The notes: a model not told the origin generated them from the letters alone. DNA of 44,153 nucleotides from a virus (IMGVR_UViG_2541047916_000003), one strand, 5' to 3'. Shown: positions 1-32,160, counted from the first letter of the stretch. Numbers and translations: made by a program.

Positions 1-1143
1 CTATGCTGTTTTGATATCTACGATAATCCAGTCTTTACCACGATCATCATTGTATCGGTCGGTCATTTTTCTGGATTTATGACCTAACAACTTTTGCGTA
101 TCCAGACCCTGTTCCCGATATAACCGTTCTGACAGAGATCGCTGCTCATGAAATGTGGGCGCAGTTCCTGGCTCCCATTTTATGCCACATTTTTCCCTGG
201 CCTTTTTAAAAGCCGTTGTAAGAGTATTTGCAGACACCTGGTCTCCTCTGTTTGCTTGAGAGGTAGTGTGACGGTAATGGACCAGATATTTACTAACAAC
301 AGCATCCCTGCACTGAGATATAACTTCACGAAGGGTAATATTCAGAGCATCGCATTTCAGGTTAAGCGGAATAGCAAGTTTTGAACCGGTTTTTTCCTGA
401 GTAATGTGCAACATGTCGTCCCAGATATCAGAGAATTTCAAATTGCAGATATCGCCTAAACGTTGTCCAGTGACAAGAGCAAGTAGCATCCCGCATTTTA
501 AATAGGGCTGCCGTCTGCTTACGCTGTCAAATATTGCCTGCCATTCGGGCAGTGATAATCTTTGGCGGTTTACTCGATTTCGCGGTTGTTTTGTTGCCTG
601 CGCTGGGTTAAATCCTGGCGGAACATGTCCTGCGTGTTGTGCTTCTTTGAAGACGTCGATCAACACCATTCTCACGACTTGCGCCATCCTGTTATGACCT
701 TCAGCCTTTACAGCATCAATTATTTCGGCAATATCAAGTGCGGTAATATCCTTGAGGTGTTGCATTCCACAATGCTCACGGAAAAGACGAATGGGTTTGC
801 CTTTTTGCCGATAGGAGTTGGGTCTTAGTTCATTATGTTGCAGCCTGTCCTCCTGGATAGAAATATATTTATCAAGCCATTCTGTCACCGTAATGTCTGA
901 GCGCCTGCCTTTCATTCTTTCTAGACGCTCATTGACGCTTAATATTTGTCGGGTACGTTGTTCAGCAATAATGGTATTTGCTTCAGTAGCAACTTGTTTT
1001 GCTTCATTCTCATCAGTTCCTAAGCTATGAAAACGACCGGATAGTGGATGTTTGTATTGCCAATATACCTTTCCGGTTCGCTTATCTAATTTGCAATATA
1101 AATTGGGTATAGAGATTTTGTGAGATCGGGGTCTAGCAGCCAT
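1..1143 (-). CDS. int: phage integrase, tyrosine recombinase (lambda Int family)
   Basis: 380-aa ORF; C-terminal ..TFHEQRSLSERLY..LLGHKS..RY.. resembles the lambda Int catalytic region and the N-terminus resembles its arm-binding region; overlaps xis by 11 nt as in lambda; at prophage left end. Confidence 0.9.
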   Translation of the reverse strand: MAARPRSHKISIPNLYCKLDKRTGKVYWQYKHPLSGRFHSLGTDENEAKQVATEANTIIAEQRTRQILSVNERLERMKGRRSDITVTEWLDKYISIQEDRLQHNELRPNSYRQKGKPIRLFREHCGMQHLKDITALDIAEIIDAVKAEGHNRMAQVVRMVLIDVFKEAQHAGHVPPGFNPAQATKQPRNRVNRQRLSLPEWQAIFDSVSRRQPYLKCGMLLALVTGQRLGDICNLKFSDIWDDMLHITQEKTGSKLAIPLNLKCDALNITLREVISQCRDAVVSKYLVHYRHTTSQANRGDQVSANTLTTAFKKAREKCGIKWEPGTAPTFHEQRSLSERLYREQGLDTQKLLGHKSRKMTDRYNDDRGKDWIIVDIKTA

Positions 1144-1369
1144 CAGCGATTATCCGTTGGAGTTTTGGGTTTGCGTTTATTGGGAGTTGCGGTTCTGCAA
1201 GCGTTCCTACAAAACGGGAATTTCGGTCAATCATCCAGTAGCGACCAACTTTTATAGCGGGTGGGGCCATCATTTTCCCTTGCGCGTATTTTTTCAGAAC
1301 TCGCTCACTTGGTGCTAAGTCCCCAAATTCTTCTTTAGCCCAGTCCTGTAAAGTGATTAGTCGAGACAT
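1133..1369 (-). CDS. xis: excisionase
   Basis: 78-aa ORF immediately upstream of and overlapping int; LTLQDW and PPAIKVGRYW motifs resemble lambda-type Xis. Confidence 0.75.
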   Translation of the reverse strand: MSRLITLQDWAKEEFGDLAPSERVLKKYAQGKMMAPPAIKVGRYWMIDRNSRFVGTLAEPQLPINANPKLQRIIADGC

Positions 1370-1508
1370 TTGTCCTCCTCTTAGCTGCTGAGGGAGTTTG
1401 TGACCGATATATCTGACATGATATTAAGCTCATGGCAGGTACATCTCTTGACTGGTCATAGAGATAAATTTAATGCTGAGAAATGCAGTATTGAATTTAT
1501 CAATTTTT

Positions 1509-1748
1509 CTATTTCCTGCGTATGGCACGTAACTTCTTAATGTGTTCTGCTGTTTCGATCTCTTCAGCTATCCGATCTGCGTCAGCTTTATTCACAGGTT
1601 CAAAGTCATGATTAAAGCGGAACATGCTGGCGATACATGTTCTGCCTTTTCGGATGTAGTGAACTTTGTTGTGAGTGGAACGCAGGATTTTGCAGGGAGT
1701 GCCGTGGTGGTCGACGTACCAGGTGTTAGGGTAAATCACTCTGAACAT
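1509..1748 (-). CDS. hypothetical protein (79 aa)
   Basis: ORF in the early-left accessory region; no family recognised. Confidence 0.45.
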   Translation of the reverse strand: MFRVIYPNTWYVDHHGTPCKILRSTHNKVHYIRKGRTCIASMFRFNHDFEPVNKADADRIAEEIETAEHIKKLRAIRRK

Positions 1749-1773
1749 TCTTGACCTTGTGTTGTGCGGATTG

Positions 1774-2013
1774 TTATTCAGTGCCGATATTTACCTTTAT
1801 CGCGTATACCTTTACCGGTTTATCACCGAAGTGCGGATGTGTGATTGTCTTCACTTCATATCCGTCATACGGAACATCAACTCTGCGGCTGGAATCGTCG
1901 CGCTTCGGATATCCCTTTGTGATAATCAGGCGGTCATGCTTACGGTTAACGAGGCGCTTTTTCCAGTAGTCATTACACAGGCGATACTCTTCCGTTTTCT
2001 CTCCGCGAATCAT
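1774..2013 (-). CDS. hypothetical protein (80 aa from internal ATG; track ORF extends to 2142)
   Basis: ATG at 2013 avoids a 92-nt overlap with the upstream gene that stops at 2051; the 2142 start would overlap. Confidence 0.4.
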   Translation of the reverse strand: MIRGEKTEEYRLCNDYWKKRLVNRKHDRLIITKGYPKRDDSSRRVDVPYDGYEVKTITHPHFGDKPVKVYAIKVNIGTE

Positions 2014-2050
2014 GGCATCGAAGTATTCACCTTTAACGGCAAGTTGCAGG

Positions 2051-2791
2051 TTAGCCACGGTTAACTCCTTGCTGTGTGGCGTCGAGTAATAAATCCCACA
2101 ACCGCTGAGAGCAATTTCCGCATGTACAGCGTTGACCCACAACGTTTATCGCGTTGCTGATTTCCGGCGTTACCTGTTTAGGAACCATAACCCAACCATC
2201 CGGAGTTACCGGAAGCGAGAACGGCAGCACATCTCTGTGAACAAGTTTTTGCTGTGACAGGTTATCCAGAACTTTCTGTACTGCTGCATCACCGAATACA
2301 CCAAGCGCATCTGCCATAACTCCTACAACCTGATAAGCCTCAGCGCATACCGTGGATAAACCATCCGGAATTACCGGAGAGTTGCCGGGTTCTTTAATGT
2401 GCAAGCGAGGCTCACCATCTTTTGGCTCAGGCCACTGGCGCTCCATGTTGATCTTCAATTTATCTTCCATAGCAACGGTAATTTCAGCATCGCTGATGCC
2501 AGCACGGCGCTGTGCATCCCACAACAGAAACTGCATATCAGCCCACTCGCTAAGATCGTCTGGTTCGGCTGCGGCTTCCAGTGCCTCTTTTGAGAGGTGT
2601 TTCAGTGGACCAATGGGGCCAACGCAGCCAAATGTGGAGTCAGACCATTTGGCATGCTCGTGGCGAATCTGTTCGCGTTCCAGTGATGCCAGTGCAATTC
2701 GTGCTAGTTCCATTTGTTCGCCACGAGTAAGCCCGTTTTCAAGCGGATTTTTAATGAACAATTCAATACGTTCTTTGGTAATAGTGGTCAT
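2051..2791 (-). CDS. early-region protein with MazG-like helical N-domain and P-V-I-P-D-G C-region (DUF550/DUF551-like)
   Basis: 246-aa ORF; N-terminal helical segment resembles nucleotide pyrophosphohydrolase-type domains; NSPVIPDG motif shared with neighbouring genes; ATGA coupling to downstream gene. Confidence 0.5.
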   Translation of the reverse strand: MTTITKERIELFIKNPLENGLTRGEQMELARIALASLEREQIRHEHAKWSDSTFGCVGPIGPLKHLSKEALEAAAEPDDLSEWADMQFLLWDAQRRAGISDAEITVAMEDKLKINMERQWPEPKDGEPRLHIKEPGNSPVIPDGLSTVCAEAYQVVGVMADALGVFGDAAVQKVLDNLSQQKLVHRDVLPFSLPVTPDGWVMVPKQVTPEISNAINVVGQRCTCGNCSQRLWDLLLDATQQGVNRG

Positions 2792-2997
2792 GTGTTAATC
2801 CTCAAAACTTTATGCCCGGGCGCAAAAGTACGTGTTTTGTCTTTGCTTATTCGCCACCCGTCTTTACGGGCCTCTTTTGCACAACCAGACCATGACGTAC
2901 CGATATACTCACCGAAGTCTGGCACTGGATATACACCTTCCGTACACTGGCGACAATCACAATAGAGATGCATGGTGTAACTTGCGGCAATAGCCAT
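2788..2997 (-). CDS. small Cys-rich hypothetical protein (69 aa)
   Basis: ATG at 2997 sits 1 nt after the upstream stop; C-x-C-x2-C cluster; track ORF start at 3039 would overlap the upstream gene. Confidence 0.45.
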   Translation of the reverse strand: MAIAASYTMHLYCDCRQCTEGVYPVPDFGEYIGTSWSGCAKEARKDGWRISKDKTRTFAPGHKVLRINT

Positions 2998-2998
2998 A

Positions 2999-3532
2999 TC
3001 ACTCTCTTTTTCCCTGAAGCATGGCAGCGTGGCAGGCATCCTCTACGCCCTTAACTGCATCTGCGCAGTAGTTATAGCGATTGCATTCCACTAACTTCTG
3101 CCTGAGATTTTCAATTGCTTGCGCGACATCAGCCTGTATTACAGGAACTGGCGGAACGGCTGTCTGCTGCTCTCGAACGTCATTAGTCGCTATCGGTTCT
3201 GCTGCCAACTGACTGGCATATTTGTTAATGGTAACGATAAGCTCTTGCTCAGCCTCATCCAGACAATCACCGATACCTCGCCTGTCGCCGTCAAAATCAT
3301 CGAAATCAGCACGAACTCTGGCAAATTTCAGGATTGCGGACAACACCTCACCAGGAATTACCGGAGAGTTGGTTGACGTTTCCGAAATTTCCCGAAAATT
3401 ATTGGTTGACGAATTCGCGTTTTCCCGAAAGTTTCCGGCATGAAGCATAGCCGCGCGGCAGGCGTTCCAGCCTCTCACCTCTGCAATAGCGGCAACAGCA
3501 TCGACCGCGTACATGCTAAGAGGGTTAGGCAT
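2999..3532 (-). CDS. hypothetical protein with 11-aa tandem repeat and SPVIPGE motif
   Basis: Track ORF begins at a TTG at 3607 overlapping the upstream gene; first ATG is at 3532; contains FRENANSSTNN/FREISETSTNS repeat. Confidence 0.45.
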   Translation of the reverse strand: MPNPLSMYAVDAVAAIAEVRGWNACRAAMLHAGNFRENANSSTNNFREISETSTNSPVIPGEVLSAILKFARVRADFDDFDGDRRGIGDCLDEAEQELIVTINKYASQLAAEPIATNDVREQQTAVPPVPVIQADVAQAIENLRQKLVECNRYNYCADAVKGVEDACHAAMLQGKRE

Positions 3533-3549
3533 TGGTTTTTCTTCAGGTA

Positions 3550-3804
3550 CTACTGGCACTGGCTTGGCATATATAGCGGCTGAACATACCAACCCTTTGA
3601 TAACCAACTGTCAGCAATGTTTTTACTCCTCGTTATTGCCGGAATACCTAAGCCATTGTCTGAATGCAGCCATGCCACCGGATTCTCTTCCAGCGATGCC
3701 AGAGCAATTTCATAAGCCCGGCGCTCAACATTGTCTCGCACATCCAAACTGCTGATACGCTCTTTGATTTCTTTAATCAGTTCTTTGTCGGTAAAAGTGC
3801 TCAT
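3550..3804 (-). CDS. hypothetical protein (84 aa)
   Basis: ATG at 3804 overlaps the stop of the Ea22-like gene (ATGA); shares an IALASLE motif with the 2051-2791 product. Confidence 0.45.
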   Translation of the reverse strand: MSTFTDKELIKEIKERISSLDVRDNVERRAYEIALASLEENPVAWLHSDNGLGIPAITRSKNIADSWLSKGWYVQPLYMPSQCQ

Positions 3805-3805
3805 A

Positions 3806-4570
3806 TCAATCTCCATTGGTATCAATGTTTACAGCCTGACAAGACTCTTTGAGCACCCAGTCAATAGCGTCTTTCCATGCCTCTGTTTCGACTGGTGGAT
3901 TTTCACGCTTAACCTGTTCATAGAAGCGCACTGCTTTAACCAGTCCTTCCGGTACTACTGGTGATGGCTGTTTAGCTTCTAAATCAGCAATTCTGTCAAC
4001 CACGGCATCGACAGCATCTGAAAAGCCGAACCAGTTGCTCCACTCCGGCTCATCCCCGGTTGCTGCAAAGTACATATCTGCTAAAGCAGATTCAGCATGG
4101 TCACGCTCGTTAATGAGTTGCTCTTCGCTTTTCTCCAGTTCAGCAATACGCTTACCCCCATCCGAGATAACACCTTCGTAATACTCACGCTGCTCGTTGA
4201 GTTTTGATTTTGTCTCCTCAAGCTCAACTCTCAGCTTCCCAACAGTAAGAGCAATATCCTCGTTCTCCTGGTCGCGGCGTTTTATGTATTGCTGGTTTCT
4301 TTCCCGTTCATCCAGCAGTGCCAGCACAGTAGCCGGATTGGCTGCGGCGATGAATTCAGCATTGGCCTGCTGTTCCATTTGGAAATCTTCATCGAAACCG
4401 CTTTCTGGATGCGCTCCTTCAATTCTGCAAATGGGAATATATCCAGCAACTTCACGATGAATTAGCGCATAATCACCATCAAATCGGCTCTCTCCATATT
4501 CGAGCGACCACTCACCACACGTTGCTTTTTCTGCCGCTTCACGCAGTGCCTGATAGTTAATTTCGCTCAC
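3806..4570 (-). CDS. Ea22-like coiled-coil early protein
   Basis: 254-aa ORF with a central coiled-coil-like stretch; resembles Ea22-family proteins of lambdoid prophages; GTG start overlapping the upstream stop. Confidence 0.6.
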   Translation of the reverse strand: MSEINYQALREAAEKATCGEWSLEYGESRFDGDYALIHREVAGYIPICRIEGAHPESGFDEDFQMEQQANAEFIAAANPATVLALLDERERNQQYIKRRDQENEDIALTVGKLRVELEETKSKLNEQREYYEGVISDGGKRIAELEKSEEQLINERDHAESALADMYFAATGDEPEWSNWFGFSDAVDAVVDRIADLEAKQPSPVVPEGLVKAVRFYEQVKRENPPVETEAWKDAIDWVLKESCQAVNIDTNGD

Positions 4571-4788
4571 TTCGAACCTCTCTGTTTACTGATAAGCTCC
4601 AGATCCTCCTGGCAACTTGCACAAGTCCGACAACCCTGAACGACCAGGCGTCTTCGTTCATCTATGGGATCGCCACACTCACAACAATGAGTGGCGGATA
4701 TAGTCTGGTAGTTCAGACGACGCATTTTTATTGCTGTATTGCGCTGTAATTCTTCAATTTCTGATGCTGAATCAATGATGTCCGCCAT
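4567..4788 (-). CDS. TraR/DksA-family C4 zinc-finger protein
   Basis: 73-aa ORF with CxxC..(17)..CxxC spacing (CCECG...CRTCASC) typical of phage TraR/DksA-like proteins. Confidence 0.7.
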   Translation of the reverse strand: MADIIDSASEIEELQRNTAIKMRRLNYQTISATHCCECGDPIDERRRLVVQGCRTCASCQEDLELISKQRGSK

Positions 4789-4886
4789 CTTTCATTAATC
4801 CCTGAATTGTTGGTTAATACGCTTGAGGGTGAATGCGAATAATAAAAAAGGAGCCTGTAGCTCCCTGATGATTTTGCTTTTCATGT

Positions 4887-5102
4887 TCACCGTTCCTTAA
4901 AGACGCCGTTTAACATGCCGATCGCCAGGCTTAAATGAGTCGGTGTGAATCCCATCAGCGTTACCGTTTCGCGGTGCTTCTTTAGTACGCTACGGCAAAT
5001 GTCATCGACGTTTTTATCCGGAAACTGCTGTCTGGCTTTTTTGATTTCAGAATTAGCCTGACGGGCAATGCTGCGAAGGGCGTTTTCTTGCTGAGGTGTC
5101 AC
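4887..5102 (-). CDS. hypothetical protein (71 aa from GTG; track ORF extends to ATG at 5168)
   Basis: GTG at 5102 overlaps the stop of the 27-aa peptide ORF (GTGA) with GGGG 9-12 nt upstream; the ATG at 5168 has a poor ribosome-binding site. Confidence 0.4.
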   Translation of the reverse strand: MTPQQENALRSIARQANSEIKKARQQFPDKNVDDICRSVLKKHRETVTLMGFTPTHLSLAIGMLNGVFKER

Positions 5103-5182
5103 TGAACAAGCCCCATGTCGGCAAGCATAAGCACACAGAATATGAAGCCCGCTGCCAGAAAAATGCATTCAGTGGTTGTCAT
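5099..5182 (-). CDS. 27-aa hydrophobic peptide (MTTTECIFLAAGFIFCVLMLADMGLVQ)
   Basis: Hand-found ORF below the track threshold; ATG overlaps the stop of the orf63-like gene (ATGA) and its stop overlaps the next GTG start; single predicted TM helix. Confidence 0.3.
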   Translation of the reverse strand: MTTTECIFLAAGFIFCVLMLADMGLVQ

Positions 5183-5370
5183 ACCTGGTCTCTCTCATCT
5201 GCTTCTGCTTTCGCCACCATCATTTCCAGCTTTTGTGAAAGGGATGTGGCTAACGTATGAAATTCTTCGTCTGTTTCTACTGGTATTGGCACAAACCTGA
5301 CTCCAATTTGAGCAAGGCTATGTGCCATCTCAATACTCGTTCTTAACTCAACAGGAGATGCTTTGTGCAT
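5179..5370 (-). CDS. small early protein, lambda orf63-like position
   Basis: 63-aa ORF with GGGAGG ribosome-binding site upstream of ATG at 5370; same position and size as lambda orf63. Confidence 0.55.
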   Translation of the reverse strand: MHKASPVELRTSIEMAHSLAQIGVRFVPIPVETDEEFHTLATSLSQKLEMMVAKAEADERDQV

Positions 5371-5531
5371 ACCGCCTCCCGTTTATTATTTATCTTCTCA
5401 GCCAGCCGCTGTGCTTTCAGTGGATTTCTGATAACAGAAAGGCCGGGAAATACCCAGCCTCGCTTTGTAACGGAGTAGACGAAAGTGATCGCGCCTACCC
5501 GGATATTATCGTGAGGATGCGTCATCGCCAT
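5343..5531 (-). CDS. small early protein, lambda orf60a-like position
   Basis: 62-aa ORF whose ATG lies within the last codons of exo, as for lambda orf60a. Confidence 0.5.
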
Positions 5532-6202
5532 TGCTCCCCAAATACAAAACTAATTTCAGCCAGTGCCTCGTCCATTTTTTCGATGAACTCCGGCACCATC
5601 TCGTCAAAACTCGCCATGTACTTTTCATCCCGCTCAACCACGACATAATGCAGTCCTTCACGCTTCATACGCGGGTCATAGTTGGCAAAGTACCAGGCAT
5701 CTTTTCGCGTCACCCACATGCTGTACTGCACCTGGGCCATGTAAGCCGATTTTATGGCCTCGAAACCACCGAGCCGGAACTTCATGAAATCCCGGGAGGT
5801 AAACGGGCATTTCAGCTCAAGGCCGTTGCCGTCACTGCATAAACCATCGGGAGAGCAGGCGGTGCGCATACTTTCGTCGCGATAGATGATCGGGGATTCA
5901 GTAACATTCACGCCGGAAGTAAACTCAAACAGGGCTCTGGCGTCGTTCTCGTACTGTTTTCCCCAAGCCAGCGCCTTAGCGTTAACTTCCGGAGCCACAC
6001 CGGTGCAAACCTCAGCAAGCAGGGTGTGGAAGTAGGACATTTTCATGTCAGGCCATTTCTTTCCGGAGCGGGGTTTTGCTATCACGTTGTGAACTTCTGA
6101 AGCGGTGATGACGCCGAGCCGTAATTTGTGCCATGCATCATCCCCCTGTTCGACAGCTCTCACGTCGATCCCGGTACGCTGCAGGATAATGTCCGGTGTC
6201 AT
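5522..6202 (-). CDS. exo: lambda exonuclease (Red alpha)
   Basis: 226-aa translation matches lambda Exo as recalled ([37 protein letters not shown]...); start overlaps bet stop. Confidence 0.95.
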
Positions 6203-7505: not shown

Positions 7506-7638
7506 TTTTTGGGACTCCTGGCTGATTAAGTATGTCGATAAGGCGTTTCCATCCGTCACGTAATTTACGGGTGATTCGTTCAAGTAAAGATTCGGAAGGG
7601 CAGCCAGCAACAGGCCACCCTGCAATGGCATATTGCAT
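7474..7638 (-). CDS. cIII: CIII (FtsH inhibitor, stabilises CII)
   Basis: Hand translation [54 protein letters not shown] matches lambda CIII; 54 aa, below the track threshold. Confidence 0.85.
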   Translation of the reverse strand: MQYAIAGWPVAGCPSESLLERITRKLRDGWKRLIDILNQPGVPKNGSNNYGYPD

Positions 7639-7710
7639 GGTGTGCTCCTTATTTATACATAACGAAAAACGCCTCGAGTGAAGCGTAATTGGTATGCGGT
7701 AACGCCGCGC

Positions 7711-26741: not shown

Positions 26742-28236
26742 TCTTTCACACATTATTGCCGCAGCATTCAATGAACCGCTGCTTCTGGAGCCCGCCTATG
26801 CGCGGGTTTTCTTTTGCGCGCTCGGGCGCGAGATGGGGGCAGCAAGTCTTTCGGTACCACAACAGCAGGTACAGTTTGATGCTCCCGGAATGCTGGCTGA
26901 AACGGACGAGTACATGGCCGGAGGTAAACGACCGGCCCGTGTTTACCGGGTGGTGAACGGTATTGCTGTACTGCCGGTGACCGGCACGCTGGTGCACCGG
27001 CTGGGTGGTATGCGGCCATTTTCCGGAATGACAGGCTATGACGGCATTGTCGCCTGTCTTCAGCAGGCAATGGCGGATAGCCAGGTGCGGGGCGTACTGC
27101 TGGACATTGACAGTCCGGGCGGGCAGGCCGCCGGCGCGTTTGACTGCGCTGACATGATTTACCGCCTCCGTCAGCAGAAGCCGGTCTGGGCACTGTGCAA
27201 TGACACGGCCTGTTCTGCAGCCATGCTGCTGGCGTCGGCCTGCTCCCGACGGCTGGTTACCCAGACATCCCGTATCGGCTCCATTGGCGTGATGATGAGC
27301 CATGTCAGCTATGCCGGTCATCTGGCGCAGGCCGGTGTGGATATCACGCTGATTTACTCAGGGGCGCACAAGGTGGATGGCAATCAGTTTGAAGCGTTGC
27401 CGGCAGAGGTTCGCCAGGACATGCAGCAGCGGATTGATGCGGCGCGCCGGATGTTTGCCGAAAAAGTGGCGATGTATACCGGTCTGTCTGTTGATGCCGT
27501 CACGGGAACAGAGGCTGCCGTTTTTGAAGGTCAGTCCGGCATTGAGGCCGGGCTGGCGGATGAATTAATCAATGCGTCGGATGCCATCAGTGTGATGGCC
27601 ACGGCGCTGAACAGTAATGTCAGAGGAGGCACTATGCCGCAATTAACTGCAACGGAAGCCGCCGCGCAGGAGAACCAGCGAGTGATGGGGATCCTGACAT
27701 GCCAGGAAGCGAAAGGACGTGAACAGCTTGCCACGATGCTGGCAGGACAACAGGGCATGAGCGTTGAACAGGCCCGGGCGATTCTGGCCGCGGCGGCACC
27801 GCAGCAGCCGGTGGCATCCACGCAGAGTGAAGCCGATCGCATTATGGCGTGTGAAGAAGCGAACGGTCGTGAACAACTGGCGGCAACGCTGGCGGCGATG
27901 CCGGAGATGACGGTGGAAAAAGCCCGCCCGATCCTGGCTGCTTCACCGCAGGCGGATGCCGGACCATCACTCCGTGATCAGATCATGGCACTGGATGAGG
28001 CAAAAGGGGCTGAGGCGCAGGCTGAACAGCTGGCTGCCTGCCCGGGAATGACAGTGGAGAGCGCCCGGGCTGTGCTGGCTGCGGGATCAGGTAAGGCAGA
28101 ACCGGTCTCTGCATCCACAACCGCCATGTTTGAACATTTCATGGCGAACCATTCACCGGCAGCGGTACAGGGTGGCGTGGCACAGACGTCAGCAGACGGT
28201 GATGCGGACGTGAAAATGCTCATGGCCATGCCATGA
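26731..28236 (+). CDS. C: capsid maturation protease C (S49 family) with in-frame scaffold (Nu3-like) C-terminal region carrying a triplicated motif
   Basis: GTG start overlapping B stop; N-terminal two-thirds resemble lambda gpC; C-terminus has three tandem copies of an IMxxxEAxGREQLAxxLAxxPGMTVExAR motif. Confidence 0.9.
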   Translation: MRRNLSHIIAAAFNEPLLLEPAYARVFFCALGREMGAASLSVPQQQVQFDAPGMLAETDEYMAGGKRPARVYRVVNGIAVLPVTGTLVHRLGGMRPFSGMTGYDGIVACLQQAMADSQVRGVLLDIDSPGGQAAGAFDCADMIYRLRQQKPVWALCNDTACSAAMLLASACSRRLVTQTSRIGSIGVMMSHVSYAGHLAQAGVDITLIYSGAHKVDGNQFEALPAEVRQDMQQRIDAARRMFAEKVAMYTGLSVDAVTGTEAAVFEGQSGIEAGLADELINASDAISVMATALNSNVRGGTMPQLTATEAAAQENQRVMGILTCQEAKGREQLATMLAGQQGMSVEQARAILAAAAPQQPVASTQSEADRIMACEEANGREQLAATLAAMPEMTVEKARPILAASPQADAGPSLRDQIMALDEAKGAEAQAEQLAACPGMTVESARAVLAAGSGKAEPVSASTTAMFEHFMANHSPAAVQGGVAQTSADGDADVKMLMAMP

Positions 28237-28272
28237 AGTCAGTGCTGACCATCAATAGGAGGTTTTTACAAT

Positions 28273-28620
28273 ATGGTGACGAAAACCATCACTGAACAGC
28301 GTGCGGAAGTACGTATTTTTGCCGGTAATGATCCGGCTCATACCGCCACAGGCAGCAGCGGGATTTCCTCGCCAACACCGGCACTGACGCCCCTGATGCT
28401 GGATGAAGCCACCGGGAAACTGGTGGTCTGGGACGGACAGAAAGCCGGTAGTGCGGTTGGCATACTGGTACTGCCGCTTGAAGGCACAGAGACGGCGCTG
28501 ACGTATTACAAGTCGGGAACCTTTGCGACGGAGGCAATCCACTGGCCTGAAAGTGTGGATGAACACAAAAAGGCCAACGCCTTTGCTGGCAGTGCCCTGA
28601 GTCACGCGGCGCTGCCGTAA
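28273..28620 (+). CDS. D: head decoration protein D
   Basis: 115-aa product with ..DPAHTAT..TPLMLD..KLVVWDG..YKSGTF.. resembling lambda gpD. Confidence 0.9.
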   Translation: MVTKTITEQRAEVRIFAGNDPAHTATGSSGISSPTPALTPLMLDEATGKLVVWDGQKAGSAVGILVLPLEGTETALTYYKSGTFATEAIHWPESVDEHKKANAFAGSALSHAALP

Positions 28621-28677
28621 CACGTTATCAGGCCACCGCGGTGGCCTGACTGATTTCTGAATGAAAGGAACTGATTT

Positions 28678-29706
28678 ATGGGATTGTTTACGACCCGCCA
28701 GTTACTCGGTTATACCGAACAAAAAGTTAAATTTCGTGCGCTGTTTCTGGAGCTGTTTTTCCGCCGTACGGTGAATTTCCATACCGAAGAGGTGATGCTG
28801 GACAAAATTACCGGAAAAACGCCGGTGGCGGCCTATGTCTCCCCGGTTGTTGAAGGAAAAGTGCTGCGTCATCGTGGTGGTGAAACCCGCGTGTTGCGTC
28901 CGGGCTACGTCAAGCCGAAACACGAATTTAATTACCAGCAGGCGGTTGAGCGCCTTCCTGGTGAAGATCCATCTCAACTGAATGATCCGGCTTACCGCCG
29001 TCTGCGTATCATTACCGATAACCTCAAACAGGAAGAGCACGCGATTGTCCAGGTGGAAGAAATGCAGGCGGTAAATGCTGTGTTGTATGGCAAATACACC
29101 ATGGAAGGAGACCAGTTCGAGAAAATTGAGGTCGATTTTGGCAGGTCGACGAAGAATAACATCACTCAGGGTAGTGGTAAGGAGTGGTCAAAACAGGATC
29201 GTGACACGTTCGATCCTACACATGATATTGACCTCTACTGCGACCTGGCCAGCGGTCTTGTGAATATTGCCATTATGGACGGTACCGTCTGGCGTCTTCT
29301 GAATGGTTTTAAGCTGTTCCGCGAAAAACTGGATACCCGTCGCGGTTCAAATTCTCAACTCGAAACGGCAGTGAAAGATCTGGGCGCAGTGGTGTCCTTC
29401 AAGGGGTATTACGGCGATCTGGCCATTGTGGTGGCGAAAACGTCTTATATAGCAGAAGACGGTATCGAAAAACGTTATCTTCCAGATGGCATGCTGGTTC
29501 TGGGGAATACTGCTGCAGATGGGATCCGTTGTTACGGTGCCATTCAGGATGCTCAGGCGTTGTCCGAAGGTGTGGTGGCCTCTTCCCGTTATCCGAAACA
29601 CTGGCTGACGGTAGGGGATCCCGCCCGTGAATTTACCATGACGCAGTCCGCGCCGCTGATGGTGTTGCCGGACCCGGATGAGTTTGTGGTGGTACAGGTG
29701 AAATAA
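28678..29706 (+). CDS. E: major capsid protein E
   Basis: 342-aa translation resembles lambda gpE throughout (..PGYVKPKHE..KLDTRRGSNS.LETAVKDLG..GDPAREFTM.QSAPLM..). Confidence 0.95.
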   Translation: MGLFTTRQLLGYTEQKVKFRALFLELFFRRTVNFHTEEVMLDKITGKTPVAAYVSPVVEGKVLRHRGGETRVLRPGYVKPKHEFNYQQAVERLPGEDPSQLNDPAYRRLRIITDNLKQEEHAIVQVEEMQAVNAVLYGKYTMEGDQFEKIEVDFGRSTKNNITQGSGKEWSKQDRDTFDPTHDIDLYCDLASGLVNIAIMDGTVWRLLNGFKLFREKLDTRRGSNSQLETAVKDLGAVVSFKGYYGDLAIVVAKTSYIAEDGIEKRYLPDGMLVLGNTAADGIRCYGAIQDAQALSEGVVASSRYPKHWLTVGDPAREFTMTQSAPLMVLPDPDEFVVVQVK

Positions 29707-29713
29707 TCCGTGA

Positions 29714-29743
29714 GCGGGGGCGAAATGCCCCCGTGTCTTTTTT
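29714..29743 (+). terminator. hairpin plus U-tract after the major capsid gene
   Basis: GCGGGGGC-gaaat-GCCCCCG followed by TGTCTTTTTT. Confidence 0.55.
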
Positions 29744-29757
29744 CACAGGGGGCTGAT

Positions 29758-30132
29758 ATGGCAACGAAAGAGCAAAATCTGAAACGGCTTGATGAACTGG
29801 CCCTGATTCTGGGGCGTGAGCCGGATATATCCGGGAGTGCCGCAGAGATAGCGCAGCGGGTGGCAGAATGGGAAGAGGAAATGCAGTCATCCGGCGATGA
29901 TGTACAGGTTATGAATATGGATATCCGGGAGCGGGAAACCGCGGCTCATGATGTTCGTGAGGAAACATCCGGCGCGTTAACGCGCATCAGAGTTCTGACC
30001 TGCCTCCATCTCTGTGGCGTTGATGGTGAAACGGGGGAATCCGTTGAGCTTGCGGATGTTGGTCGGGTGATTCTGATTATGTCCTCAGATGCAAAAACAC
30101 ACGTTGATGGTGGAATGGCTGTTTATGCGTGA
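29758..30132 (+). CDS. FI: DNA-packaging protein FI
   Basis: ATG at 29758 after a GGGGG ribosome-binding site; in the lambda gpFI position. Confidence 0.75.
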   Translation: MATKEQNLKRLDELALILGREPDISGSAAEIAQRVAEWEEEMQSSGDDVQVMNMDIRERETAAHDVREETSGALTRIRVLTCLHLCGVDGETGESVELADVGRVILIMSSDAKTHVDGGMAVYA

Positions 30133-30478
30133 TTTTCAGAATGCCTTTGATGCCGCCCTTGCCGGGGTGGACAGTACGATTGTTGAAGTGATGGGCATCA
30201 GTGCGCAGTTCACCTCCGGTGCACAGCGTGGCGGCGAGGTTCATGGCGTTTTTGACGATCCGGAGTCGCTGGGTTTTGCCAGTAGTGGGATCCGTATTGA
30301 AGGAAGTAACCCGTCATTATTTGTGCTTACGGATACGGTTTGTGCTGTACGGCGTGGTGACACGCTGACCATTAACGGCGAGATGTTCTGGGTGGACCGT
30401 GTTTCTCCGGATGACGGAGGGAGTTGTTATCTCTGGCTCAACCGGGGGCAACCACCTGCCGCCAGCCGTCGCCGCTGA
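30125..30478 (+). CDS. FII: head-tail connector FII
   Basis: Product resembles lambda gpFII (..FWVDRVSPDDGGSC.LWL..); start overlaps FI stop. Confidence 0.85.
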   Translation: MRDFQNAFDAALAGVDSTIVEVMGISAQFTSGAQRGGEVHGVFDDPESLGFASSGIRIEGSNPSLFVLTDTVCAVRRGDTLTINGEMFWVDRVSPDDGGSCYLWLNRGQPPAASRRR

Positions 30479-30489
30479 AAGGGGGATGT

Positions 30490-31068
30490 ATGGCCATAAA
30501 AGGTCTTGAGCAGGCCGTTGAAAACCTCAGCCGTATCAGCAAAACGGCAGTGCCTGGTGCCGCCGCAATGGCCATTAACCGCGTTGCTTCATCCGCGATA
30601 TCGCAGTCGGCGTCACTGGTTGCCCGTGAGACAAAGGTACGCCGGAAACTGGTAAAGGAAAGGGCCAGGCTGAAAAGGGCCACGGTCAAAAATCCGCAGG
30701 CCAGAATCAAAGTTAACCGGGGGGATTTGCCCGTAATCAGGCTGGGTAATGCGCGGGTTGTCCTTTCGCGCCGCAGGCGTCGTAAAAAGGGGCAGCGTTC
30801 ATCCCTGAAAGGTGGCGGCAGCGTGCTTGTGGTGGGTAACCGTCGTATTCCCGGCGCGTTTATTCAGCAACTGAAAAATGGCCGCTGGCATGTCATGCAG
30901 CGTGTGGCCGGGAAAAACCGTTACCCCATTGATGTGGTGAAAATTCCGATGGCGGTGCCGCTGACCACGGCGTTTAAACAGAATATTGAGCGGATACGGC
31001 GTGAGCGTCTTCCGAAAGAGCTGGGCTATGCGCTGCAGCATCAACTGAGGATGGTAATAAAGCGATGA
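30490..31068 (+). CDS. Z: minor tail protein Z
   Basis: 192-aa product essentially matches lambda gpZ as recalled (MAIKGLEQAVENLSRISKTAVPGAAAMAINRV...). Confidence 0.9.
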   Translation: MAIKGLEQAVENLSRISKTAVPGAAAMAINRVASSAISQSASLVARETKVRRKLVKERARLKRATVKNPQARIKVNRGDLPVIRLGNARVVLSRRRRRKKGQRSSLKGGGSVLVVGNRRIPGAFIQQLKNGRWHVMQRVAGKNRYPIDVVKIPMAVPLTTAFKQNIERIRRERLPKELGYALQHQLRMVIKR

Positions 31069-31460
31069 AACATACTGAATTCCGTGCAGCCGTACTGGAT
31101 GCACTGGAAAAACATGACACCGGGGCGACGCTTTTTGATGGTCGCCCCGCTGTTTTTGATGAGGCGGATTTTCCGGCAATTGCCGTTTATCTCACCGGCG
31201 CTGAATACACGGGCGAAGAGCTGGACAGCGATACCTGGCAGGCGGAGCTGCATATTGAAGTTTTCCTGCCTGCTCAGGTGCCGGATTCAGAGCTGGATTC
31301 GTGGATGGAAAGCCGGATTTATCCGGCGATGAGCGATATCCCGGCACTGTCAGATTTGATCACCAGTATGGTGGCCAGTGGCTATGACTACCGGCGCGAC
31401 GATGATGCGGGCCTGTGGAGTTCAGCCGATCTGACTTATGTCATTACCTATGAAATGTGA
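31065..31460 (+). CDS. U: tail terminator U
   Basis: 131-aa product matches lambda gpU as recalled; start overlaps Z stop. Confidence 0.9.
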
Positions 31461-31467
31461 GGACGAT

Positions 31468-32160
31468 ATGCCAACACCAAATCCTCTGGCACCGGTGAAA
31501 GGGGCCGGAACCACACTGTGGGTTTATAACGGGAGCGGCGACCCTTATGCAAACCCGCTTTCAGACAATGACTGGTCGCGTCTGGCAAAAATTAAAGACC
31601 TGACGCCCGGCGAACTGACCGCTGAGTCCTATGACGACAGTTATCTCGATGATGAAGATGCGGACTGGACCGCGACCGGGCAGGGGCAGAAATCCGCCGG
31701 AGATACCAGCTTCACGCTGGCGTGGATGCCCGGAGAGCAGGGGCAGCAGGCGCTGCTGGCGTGGTTTAATGAAGGTGATACCCGTGCCTATAAAATCCGC
31801 TTCCCGAACGGCACGGTCGATGTGTTCCGTGGCTGGGTCAGCAGTATCGGTAAGGCGGTGACGGCGAAGGAAGTGATCACCCGTACGGTGAAGGTCACCA
31901 ATGTGGGCCGTCCGTCAATGGCAGAAGATCGCAGTACGGTGACGGCGGCAACCGGTATGACCGTGACGCCTGCCAGCTCCTCGGTGGTGAAAGGGCAGAG
32001 CACCACGCTGACCGTGGCCTTCCAGCCGGAGGGCGCAACTGACAAGAGCTTCCGTGCGGTGTCAGCGGATAAAACAAAAGCCACCGTGTCGGTCAGTGGT
32101 ATGACCATCACCGTGAACGGCGTTGCTGCGGTTGCAGAAATCACTGTCACCGACAGTTAA
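31468..32160 (+). CDS. V: major tail tube protein V
   Basis: Product matches lambda gpV as recalled over most of its length; C-terminal domain slightly shorter. Confidence 0.9.

Follow-up and report, generated by a model that had tools for sequence, protein, structure and literature searches.

Module sharing and candidate exchange joints in the exo-xis region of a lambdoid prophage

Why do neighbouring early genes of a phage, to all appearance unrelated, carry the same short peptides? The question is raised by a 44,153-nucleotide (nt) stretch of viral DNA (IMGVR_UViG_2541047916_000003, hereafter the window). The original prediction, made from the sequence alone, had noticed such peptides in a run of short genes at 1509-5370 and ascribed them to illegitimate recombination. 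We found that positions 1509-5525 of the window (minus strand) are almost certainly the exo-xis region of a lambdoid prophage. The region has two halves, an exo-proximal block conserved with lambda and a xis-proximal variable cassette. That peptide modules are shared is upheld, and so is recombination as the probable cause. An account that combines the exo-xis setting with exchange of modules at conserved joints is, on the whole, likely to be correct. Part of this picture is already known: the region is deposited and annotated, and both its layout and the mosaicism of Ea22 proteins have been published.

Linkers and modules of the variable cassette

The shared peptides occupy two kinds of position. 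IALASLE closes an N-terminal leader module, and PV(I/V/T)P(D/E)(G/E) is a linker between modules. EIALASLE had been predicted in two open reading frames (ORFs); it is present in 3550-3804, whereas 2051-2791 reads RIALASLE. Similarly, P-V-I-P-(D/E)-G had been expected in two ORFs and holds for 2051-2791 (PVIPDG) but not for 2999-3532, which reads PVIPGE. The related PVVPEG of the Ea22-like protein is present as predicted, and two further linker copies, PVVPEE and PVTPDGW, had been overlooked (Table 1). The linkers of 2051-2791 and 2999-3532 have NSPVIP in common, with 17 identical nucleotides. When all six frames of the 44 kb were scanned with the pattern P[VI][VI]P[DEG][GE], the four matches obtained all lay in this one stretch of 1.6 kb, where they occupy coding frames of the coding strand. 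Chance does not explain the shared peptides: residue shuffles gave a shared exact 7-mer in 0/300 cases and a shared 6-mer in 10/300, although a shared 5-mer alone is not significant. At the DNA level, the linkers were recovered by a repeat finder as two repeat families, D2 and D3.

When the window ORFs were compared in pairs by BLASTP, there were weak matches only (E 0.17-0.7), and the homology of modules had to be established from profiles and from relatives. The profiles phrog_60, 3323, 5117, 660, 8589 and 12449 each match two to four ORFs over different profile ranges. For phrog_60 (461 positions) these ranges are 1-222 for the Ea22-like protein, 115-177 for ORF 3550, 116-324 for ORF 2051 and 284-375 for ORF 2999, while phrog_3323 matches 2051-2791 and 3550-3804 alike over their first ~50 residues. 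ORFs 2051-2791, 2999-3532 and 3550-3804 have no match to Pfam Ead_Ea22, and at the PHROG level they share modules and linkers with Ea22 proteins. These three modular ORFs belong to the Ea22 module pool and not to the Pfam Ead_Ea22 family, and the core of the cassette consists of tandem members of one mosaic pool of Ead/Ea22/EaA-type modules. The earlier description of the sharing ORFs as unrelated is thus contradicted by the profiles and the relatives, which reveal a single pool.

In relatives the architecture begins with a leader that ends in IALASLE and comes in alternative types, continues with a small middle module, a PVPVVP(D/E) linker and a "GWNACRAAML" module, and closes, after optional modules and a "SGNSPVTPDGW" linker, with a terminal domain (DUF551, a CxxCxGxG-type zinc module or others). 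The 155 linker-containing ORF products from related loci, a set that includes a few chance matches to the regular expression such as a RusA-like protein, comprise 72 architectures and 77 module clusters. In the related loci the linker motif was found 121 times on the coding strand versus 10 times on the opposite strand. The DUF551 terminal domains of these relatives (for example, at 5152-5172 and downstream in locus L088) are conserved at their edges (WISCSERMP ... THWMPLPEPPQEVK) and hypervariable in the core. Behind identical linker DNA, a dozen or more unrelated types of core are found, which looks like cassette variation of a binding surface.

The Ea22-like protein, rightly recognized by the original prediction, has a Pfam Ead_Ea22 match far above the cutoff (Table 1). 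It consists of an N-terminal region with a coiled coil (amino acids (aa) 1-~200), the PVVPEG linker and a 45-aa terminal module. Its identity to lambda Ea22 is 55% and covers aa 1-149 only, and the similarity of relatives ends at aa ~124, ~149 and 201-208. In relatives, Ea22 N-terminal regions are joined to terminal modules that are also used by leader-type genes. A sequence search of the PDB with the Ea22-like protein returned nothing meaningful. A pro-lysogenic function and tetramerisation have been reported for Ea22 of lambda and Stx phages (PMC7093339, PMC10834534). Ea22 proteins are described as mosaic (PMC10834534, PMC8614690), with DUF551 as a portable C-terminal domain and several variants possible per genome (PMC10834534).

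The fusion protein encoded by 2051-2791 is organized as leader, DUF550, NSPVIPDG, a 49-aa module, LPVTPDGW and a 46-aa terminal module. The DUF550 domain (PF04447) scores 141.8 bits against a cutoff of 23 and covers aa 42-137. Relatives of this protein are 98-99% identical over aa 1-200 (to W200) and unrelated beyond PVTPDGW, and their leaders are swapped at IALASLE. At loci L143 and L165 the leader of 2051-2791 is fused to the middle module of the other, split gene discussed below. The automatic annotation (PGAP) cuts the ORF into a "partial" leader pseudogene at 2666-2791 (3767-3892 in L001) and an internally starting DUF550 gene. This cut seems to be an artefact that the modular architecture causes in annotation, because clusters on hundreds of contigs (up to 829) have the leader-DUF550 fusion called as a single protein.

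Residues E69, E72, E76, E82 and D85 of DUF550 are invariant in 28 close relatives. MazG-like enzymes have acidic metal-binding residues in the arrangement ExxE ... ExxD, a metal site that E69, E72, E82 and D85 may resemble. DUF550 carries the name dATP/dGTP pyrophosphohydrolase and is listed here as a predicted dNTP pyrophosphohydrolase domain, the activity of DUF550 alone being uncertain. Hydrolysis of dATP and dGTP has been reported for the DUF5664-DUF550 fusion of Acinetobacter phage SH-Ab 15497, of which DUF5664 is active alone (PMC12884076).

The adjacent ORFs 3550-3804 and 2999-3532 are one ancestral gene, split by a derived 1-bp deletion. At the frameshift site the window reads CTATATATGCC, while loci L018 (98% DNA identity across the site) and L021 (92%) read CTATATATAGCC, and with the extra A their ORF is intact. 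In an exact-pattern scan of IMG/VR the intact allele was found in 77/80 loci and the deleted allele in 3/80, among the matches listed; two of the three deleted-allele loci are contigs already identical to the window. When the two ORFs are fused conceptually, the product aligns without a break to intact genes (272-309 aa) of Stx1a phages, phage ASO78B and Shigella phage Ss-VASD. In agreement with this, phrog_5117 spans 3550-3804 and continues into the frame upstream of ORF 2999, and PGAP calls a frameshifted pseudogene at ~3353-3804, the alignment ending at ~3353, inside the PVIPGE linker. Sequencing error was rejected as the cause of the frameshift, since independent complete genomes, like two phage records, have the identical allele. 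The original prediction had allowed that its ORF calls might collapse into fewer, longer genes after sequence correction; one longer ancestral gene did emerge, as the result of a real deletion and not of a sequence error. The C-terminal half contains the "RGWNACRAAML" module, an Asn/Ser-rich spacer, the linker and two terminal modules. The spacer, which lies directly upstream of the NSPVIPGE linker, is the D1 tandem duplication (Table 1).

Lying in adjacent, overlapping frames, the two ORFs add up to a full-length homologue, as would be the case if ribosomes made a single protein of them by programmed frameshifting at the TATATAT run. However, 77/80 of the related loci listed are single-frame with the extra A, the site is without a canonical X XXY YYZ slippery heptamer, and the first ORF ends 17 nt ahead of an in-frame ATG of the second, a spacing that makes two separate products the simpler outcome. 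Programmed frameshifting is hence highly improbable, and we do not class the pair as a frameshift gene. With such a spacing both halves may still be made.

Joint DNA as a candidate site of exchange

Breakpoints were located by blastn of the window versus 80 related loci. They cluster at gene boundaries and, inside genes, at 2355-2369, 2670-2684, 3555-3569 and 3945-3959, positions that correspond to linkers and a leader end. Of 4,383 internal alignment ends, at which both proteins go on and similarity stops, 29% are located no more than 3 residues from a linker, compared with 8% at random. At more than 25 loci the alignment starts where the PVVPEE linker does, at its first base. Linker DNA shows almost no variation: synonymous diversity over the 15 codons SPVTPDGWISCSERM is 0-0.03, whereas invariant residues elsewhere in the same domain have values of 0.4-0.67. 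More than 120 IMG/VR contigs contain the exact 21-mer CCGGTAA(C/T)TCCGGATGGTTGG; in its 158 distinct DNA contexts, 25 upstream and 32 downstream module clusters are joined in 94 combinations. At loci L008, L011 and L048, alignments to window positions 4571-3946 and 3564-3441 overlap by 24 nt on the locus, and the overlap is repeat D2 (3946-3969 / 3541-3564), common to both linkers. A locus of the L008 type would be the product expected from a crossover between two linkers, with the N-terminal part of Ea22 followed by the "RGWNACRAAML" module.

Gene ends, too, are shared joints. The recurrent C-terminal peptide PPQEVK-stop is encoded by CAGGAGGTGAAGTAATG, which contains a Shine-Dalgarno sequence and the overlapping stop/start of the next gene. 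Gene ends of this type probably explain the conserved K/RGE endings reported earlier (PMC7093339), an interpretation that is our own.

We suggest that the modular proteins (Ea22, the product of the split gene and the leader-DUF550 fusion) are built as beads on a string, with a leader or coiled coil first, one to four portable modules after it and proline-rich linkers between them. Joint DNA, conserved over 21-45 nt, would serve as a short-homology crossover site, whether the partners are lambdoid phages that reside in or infect the same cell or are adjacent genes, and crossovers at the joints would exchange modules in frame. Gene ends such as PPQEVK-stop would act as further joints, with the following gene's ribosome-binding site and start encoded in them as well. 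In this lineage, a 1-bp deletion has divided one modular gene into two ORFs. Short-homology exchange at conserved joints is, with moderate confidence, our choice for the main mechanism.

Illegitimate recombination followed by selection is the standard model of phage mosaicism, and it could have given unrelated neighbouring ORFs their shared peptides, with selection keeping those junctions that fall between domains. Consistent with it, the junctions coincide with likely domain boundaries, and the leader-end joint is weakly conserved in DNA. Yet the ORFs are homologous at the module level, the linker DNA is almost without synonymous change, and the L008-type junction lies inside a 24-nt repeat of both parents. 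Short-homology recombination fits better because the joint DNA is conserved, the 21-mer is reused in 94 combinations and a relative carries a fusion as expected from crossover in the 24-nt repeat; the illegitimate route favoured by the original prediction is not the best reading, and we consider it unlikely. Protein-level selection offers a different explanation, in which the shared motifs are functional short linear motifs such as a host-protein docking or processing site. Exposed Pro-rich segments are often docking sites, and the motif peptide is strongly conserved across many contexts. Selection on the peptide, however, does not account for near-zero synonymous variation, the variants PVVPEG, PVVPEE, PVIPGE and PVTPDGW share one architectural position, and no candidate partner was identified. 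Such a function is compatible with the linkers being recombination joints and does not exclude it, but as the reason for the sharing it has a low probability.

Decay would make the variable half a collection of prophage debris in which many ORFs are functionless fragments. In line with this, one gene is frameshifted, PGAP labels the leader of 2051-2791 a separate pseudogene fragment, and insertion sequences (ISs) are found in orf63 (ISEc52, strain ATCC 25922) and in the Ea22-like gene (ISEc10, CFT073). The remaining ORFs, on the other hand, are all intact and tightly coupled, 2051-2791 is continuous and its leader-DUF550 fusion recurs on up to 829 contigs, and the identical cassette is present in the phage records ev017 and PhiR57_1 and in 86 complete E. 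coli genomes, so that debris is hardly a probable description. It is also doubtful that at least one cassette gene (the DUF550 fusion, the ASCH-like, the DUF4222 or the 69-aa gene) encodes an anti-defence or host-takeover effector, a role that the original prediction had raised for this hotspot. Early expression is expected from the pL position, as judged by synteny, DUF550 belongs to a nucleotide pyrophosphohydrolase family (PMC12884076), and the combinations of terminal modules resemble arms-race variation. But PADLOC, which covers defence proteins only, gave no match for the ten ORFs at E <= 0.01, no link was found in the literature, and DUF550 activity is known only from the fusion with DUF5664, itself active alone.

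Exchange at conserved joints has to be weighed against several observations. The loci were picked by similarity and are phylogenetically non-independent, and the enrichment and the synonymous contrasts are therefore descriptive and not calibrated. Random recombinants that survive only with whole domains would also be expected to give sharp junctions at linkers. Recent spread of one allele, or a function at the RNA or DNA level, could be behind the low synonymous diversity. The leader-end joint IALASLE is far more variable in DNA, with 49 DNA variants among 170 instances. Finally, the AlphaFold2 model of 2051-2791 (28 close homologues) was unusable, with a mean pLDDT of 42, and gives no support to the placing of linkers between folded domains.

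Linker DNA at 2364-2378 and 2198-2212 contains a perfect inverted repeat, TCCGG-N5-CCGGA, which was flagged as a hairpin by the terminator scan and may be a by-product of the Ser-Pro-Val-x-Pro-Asp codons. A more far-reaching proposal is that linker DNA of this kind (CCGGTAACTCCGGATGGTTGG, with TCCGG-N5-CCGGA), together with the ribosome-binding-site joints at gene ends, forms a dedicated grammar of cassette exchange, which would turn the variable half of the region into a system for combinatorial diversification of host-targeting early proteins, analogous to the swapping of C-terminal cassettes in polymorphic toxins. The phage's own Red recombinase, encoded immediately upstream, might drive the exchange, and hypervariable module cores such as that of DUF551 would reflect an arms race with host targets or defences. 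We put this forward tentatively and give it a modest chance of being right.

The conserved block and the setting of the region

The predicted position in the early-left accessory slot between xis and exo is borne out by the flanking genes, int-xis on one side and exo-bet-gam-kil-cIII on the other (Table 1). In E. coli strain 1105 the prophage adjoins icd, and the order is int, xis, the region, exo, bet, gam, kil, cIII, with every gene on the minus strand. The expected ten or so short coupled genes are likewise there, as ten tightly spaced minus-strand ORFs in 1509-5370; an eleventh, orf60a (5343-5525), abuts exo. Four stop/start overlaps are found, other gaps are mostly 1-25 nt, and the sole larger internal gap (98 nt, 4789-4886) contains a terminator hairpin. 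By synteny with lambda, the region would form the distal part of the leftward early (pL) operon and be transcribed with it. Under the name exo-xis region, this segment of the operon has been studied before (PMC8614690, PMC4195576), and a layout with a conserved block and variable downstream genes has been described for it (PMC8614690).

Table 1. Features within the exo-xis region and at its flanks in the window
Feature	Position	Strand	Remarks
int	1-1143	-	left flank of region
xis	1133-1369	-	left flank of region
DUF4222 protein, 79 aa, last gene before xis	1509-1748	-	Pfam DUF4222 67.7 bits
ASCH-like protein, 94 aa	1774-2058	-	GTG start overlaps upstream stop; PGAP ASCH; phrog_625 165 bits
Modular fusion protein, 246 aa	2051-2791	-	leader 2678-2791, DUF550 2381-2668, linker, middle 2213-2359, linker, terminal 2054-2191
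Linker PVTPDGW	2192-2212	-	overlaps D3 repeat copy 2197-2219; DNA CCGGTAACTCCGGATGGTTGG
Linker PVIPDG	2360-2377	-	in D3 repeat copy 2362-2384
RIALASLE, leader end of 2051-2791	2678-2701	-	breakpoint cluster 2670-2684
Cys-rich protein, 69 aa	2788-2997	-	phrog_926
C-terminal half of split gene, 177 aa, ATG 3532	2999-3532	-	phrog_14306 366 bits
Linker PVIPGE	3347-3364	-	in D3 repeat copy 3349-3371
33-nt tandem duplication, repeat family D1	3369-3433	-	78% identity; encodes NFRENANSSTN / NFREISETSTN
Linker PVVPEE	3539-3556	-	in D2 repeat copy 3541-3564; ORF 2999 frame, upstream of ATG
N-terminal half of split gene	3550-3804	-	leader aa 1-39 ending EIALASLE (3688-3804); middle module 3571-3687
Frameshift site	3566-3576	-	one A missing from CTATATATAGCC, between bases 3569 and 3568
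EIALASLE, leader end of 3550-3804	3688-3711	-	
Ead/Ea22-family protein, 254 aa	3806-4570	-	Pfam Ead_Ea22 (PF13935) 138.1 bits, cutoff 27, aa 2-146
Linker PVVPEG	3944-3961	-	in D2 repeat copy 3946-3969; putative crossover point in L008, L011, L048
Orf73, TraR/DksA C4 zinc finger, 73 aa	4567-4788	-	Pfam PF01258 (zf-dskA_traR) 35.7 bits, cutoff 24.9
Rho-independent terminator-like hairpin t2	4848-4866	-	in 98-nt orf61-orf73 gap; terminator scan
orf61 homologue, 93 aa, continuous	4887-5168	-	lambda 91-100% in two pieces; phrog_303
orf63 homologue, DUF1382, 63 aa	5179-5370	-	Pfam DUF1382 106 bits; lambda orf63 94%
orf60a homologue, DUF1317, 60 aa	5343-5525	-	97% aa identity to lambda orf60a; PGAP DUF1317
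Terminator-like hairpin t1	5439-5461	-	inside orf60a; terminator scan
exo	5522-6202	-	right flank; bet, gam, kil, cIII beyond, all minus

Amino-acid identities to lambda were obtained by tblastn versus lambda 27700-32100. The complete block orf60a-orf63-orf61-orf73-ea22 is present. The lambda genes of the slot have not been replaced wholesale, given the 91-100% identity of orf60a, orf63, orf61 and orf73 to their lambda counterparts. The orf63 homologue also matches PDB 8dsb (E 7e-33). In lambda the two pieces of the orf61 homologue do not share a frame (window 4887-5168 against lambda 30716-30994, L086 3016-3295), and this comparison suggests that the annotated 61-aa orf61 of lambda may be a truncated version of the 93-aa ORF.

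The predicted TraR/DksA-type zinc finger is confirmed by its Pfam match (Table 1). It is the orthologue of lambda Orf73 and not a novelty of this phage, with 97% identity to the lambda orf73 reading frame and matches to F-plasmid TraR chains (PDB 5w1s and 6n57). Its score for the TIGR02419 subfamily is slightly under the cutoff (54.2 versus 59.7), and the NCBIfam search returned TraR-family models only. Like its TraR relatives, Orf73 binds RNA polymerase, inhibits the promoters for rRNA and ribosomal proteins and raises phage burst size, and it reprograms transcription in the host (PMC9239242). In reviews a pro-lysogenic role is given to ea22 and orf73 and a pro-lytic one to orf60a, orf63 and orf61 (PMC8614690; for ea22 and orf60a/63/61 also PMC7093339). 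The statement that none of the products can be assigned a function was thus too pessimistic, as Orf73, Ea22 and orf60a/63/61 have reported roles and DUF550 is a predicted enzyme domain.

Both terminator-like hairpins match the predicted t1/t2 of lambda and phi24B (PMC4195576 Table 4), in the case of t2 including the T-tail, and the orf61-orf73 gap is 97% identical to lambda. The variable cassette sits downstream of t2, and lambda transcript levels are reported to fall downstream of t2. A 31-aa ORF at 4795-4890 (minus strand) spans the same gap and crosses the t2 hairpin; it starts with GTG, the lambda version with ATG. Ribosome profiling of lambda has revealed a 31-aa peptide gene, orf2313 (cited in PMC8614690), equal in length to this ORF.

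Among the remaining cassette genes, the 69-aa protein represents a narrow family of 45 clusters, with named sources that include Escherichia, Salmonella, Shigella, Kosakonia and Pantoea. Its conserved residues are Y-C-D-C-x2-C and ARKDGWRIS, and its predicted model is confident yet has no fold match in the PDB. The ASCH-like protein stays below the Pfam ASCH (PF04266) cutoff (15.5 versus 21.2 bits) and covers profile positions 1-39 only. PDB sequence searches gave no match for 2051-2791, 2999-3532, the ASCH-like protein or the DUF551 example. A paper on Gifsy-1 (PMC9879122) was considered as a functional precedent and found not to be relevant.

Bases 1400-5600 are matched at 100% identity, with unchanged coordinates, by Escherichia phage PhiR57_1 (PV340572.1). 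The same 100% identity was found for Escherichia phage ev017, and a literature search for this phage found no paper describing it. An icd-adjacent prophage of several E. coli strains is also 100% identical to the window region; its integration beside icd (isocitrate dehydrogenase) is seen at L001 1-988. The element e14 and phage 21 use this icd-adjacent site for attachment. Among 5,426 complete E. coli genomes, 86 (CFT073 and ATCC 25922 are two of these) contain bases 1400-5600 whole or IS-interrupted, and 4,841 contain pieces of them. In the same prophage, ATCC 25922 (L200) carries the IS3-like ISEc52 within orf63 and CFT073 (L201) the IS21-like ISEc10 within the Ea22-like gene; IS100 is found in the region in a third strain. 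Given these insertions, the genes of the region appear dispensable in lysogens.

No RNA family was found by Rfam within the region, the single match being the lambda cIII thermoregulator element outside it (88.5 bits, 7593-7651, minus strand). The promoter scan performed no better than shuffles (4 found versus 5.8 expected). The 139-nt gap between the DUF4222 gene and xis contains an AT-rich hairpin of 16 pairs (1463-1501, plus strand).

Significance and relation to known systems

The region is a textbook accessory slot, its sequence is deposited and the mosaicism of Ea22 is published, so in these respects little is added. Our analysis contributes an explicit grammar of modules and joints, DNA-conserved joints as putative crossover points, and the resolution of two ORFs into a split gene. 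With the grammar, a gene is read from its leader through modules and PVxP(D/E)G linkers to an end that also serves as a ribosome-binding site. It accounts for the breaking of such genes into "partial" or "frameshifted" pieces by automatic annotation, and it permits lambdoid and Stx prophages to be compared at the level of modules instead of genes. The 21-45-nt joints are defined points for engineering or tracking module swaps. Should the joints turn out to be favoured as substrates of recombination, the exo-xis cassette would offer a tractable model of in-frame domain shuffling in phages.

The closest counterpart is the lambda exo-xis region. The position between exo and xis on the pL strand is the same, as are the block orf60a-orf63-orf61-orf73-ea22 (the first four at 91-100%), the matching t1/t2 and the location of variable genes after ea22. 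The variable genes themselves differ: lambda has ea8.5 and orf55, whereas the window has the split EaA-type gene, the 69-aa Cys-rich gene, the leader-DUF550 fusion, the ASCH-like gene and DUF4222. The Ea22 proteins differ as well, sharing the first ~149 residues only (55%).

Polymorphic toxins provide a more distant parallel. In these proteins the motifs VENN (CdiA) and PxxxxDPxGL (Rhs) mark the border between the conserved N-terminal and the variable C-terminal part. Here too, a short peptide/DNA motif stands at a conserved-variable border where exchange takes place or, in our case, would take place; we intend this as an analogy and not as a family assignment. The window has neither toxin/immunity genes nor a secretion apparatus, and its modular proteins are cytoplasmic phage early proteins with several joints each.

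The window Orf73 (4567-4788) shows no notable difference from F TraR and lambda Orf73 (PMC9239242; PDB 5w1s, 6n57). In the ea22/L0065 pair of 933W (PMC8614690), a multi-module gene of the Ea22 family is likewise distributed over two adjacent ORFs with the distal domain separate, but the split in 933W is attributed to a gene insertion, while that in the window is a 1-bp deletion in a TA run. With regard to the Stx-phage Ea22 variants V1-V3 and DUF551 (PMC10834534, PMC7093339), the window is without DUF551 and uses other types of terminal module, and one of its members carries an internal enzyme-like DUF550. The two papers describe blocks, and a search of them for the terms "linker", "proline" and "modular" found none. 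The systems nevertheless have much in common: a shared N-terminus and coiled coil followed by interchangeable unrelated C-terminal domains, several members per genome, and conserved C-terminal tripeptides.

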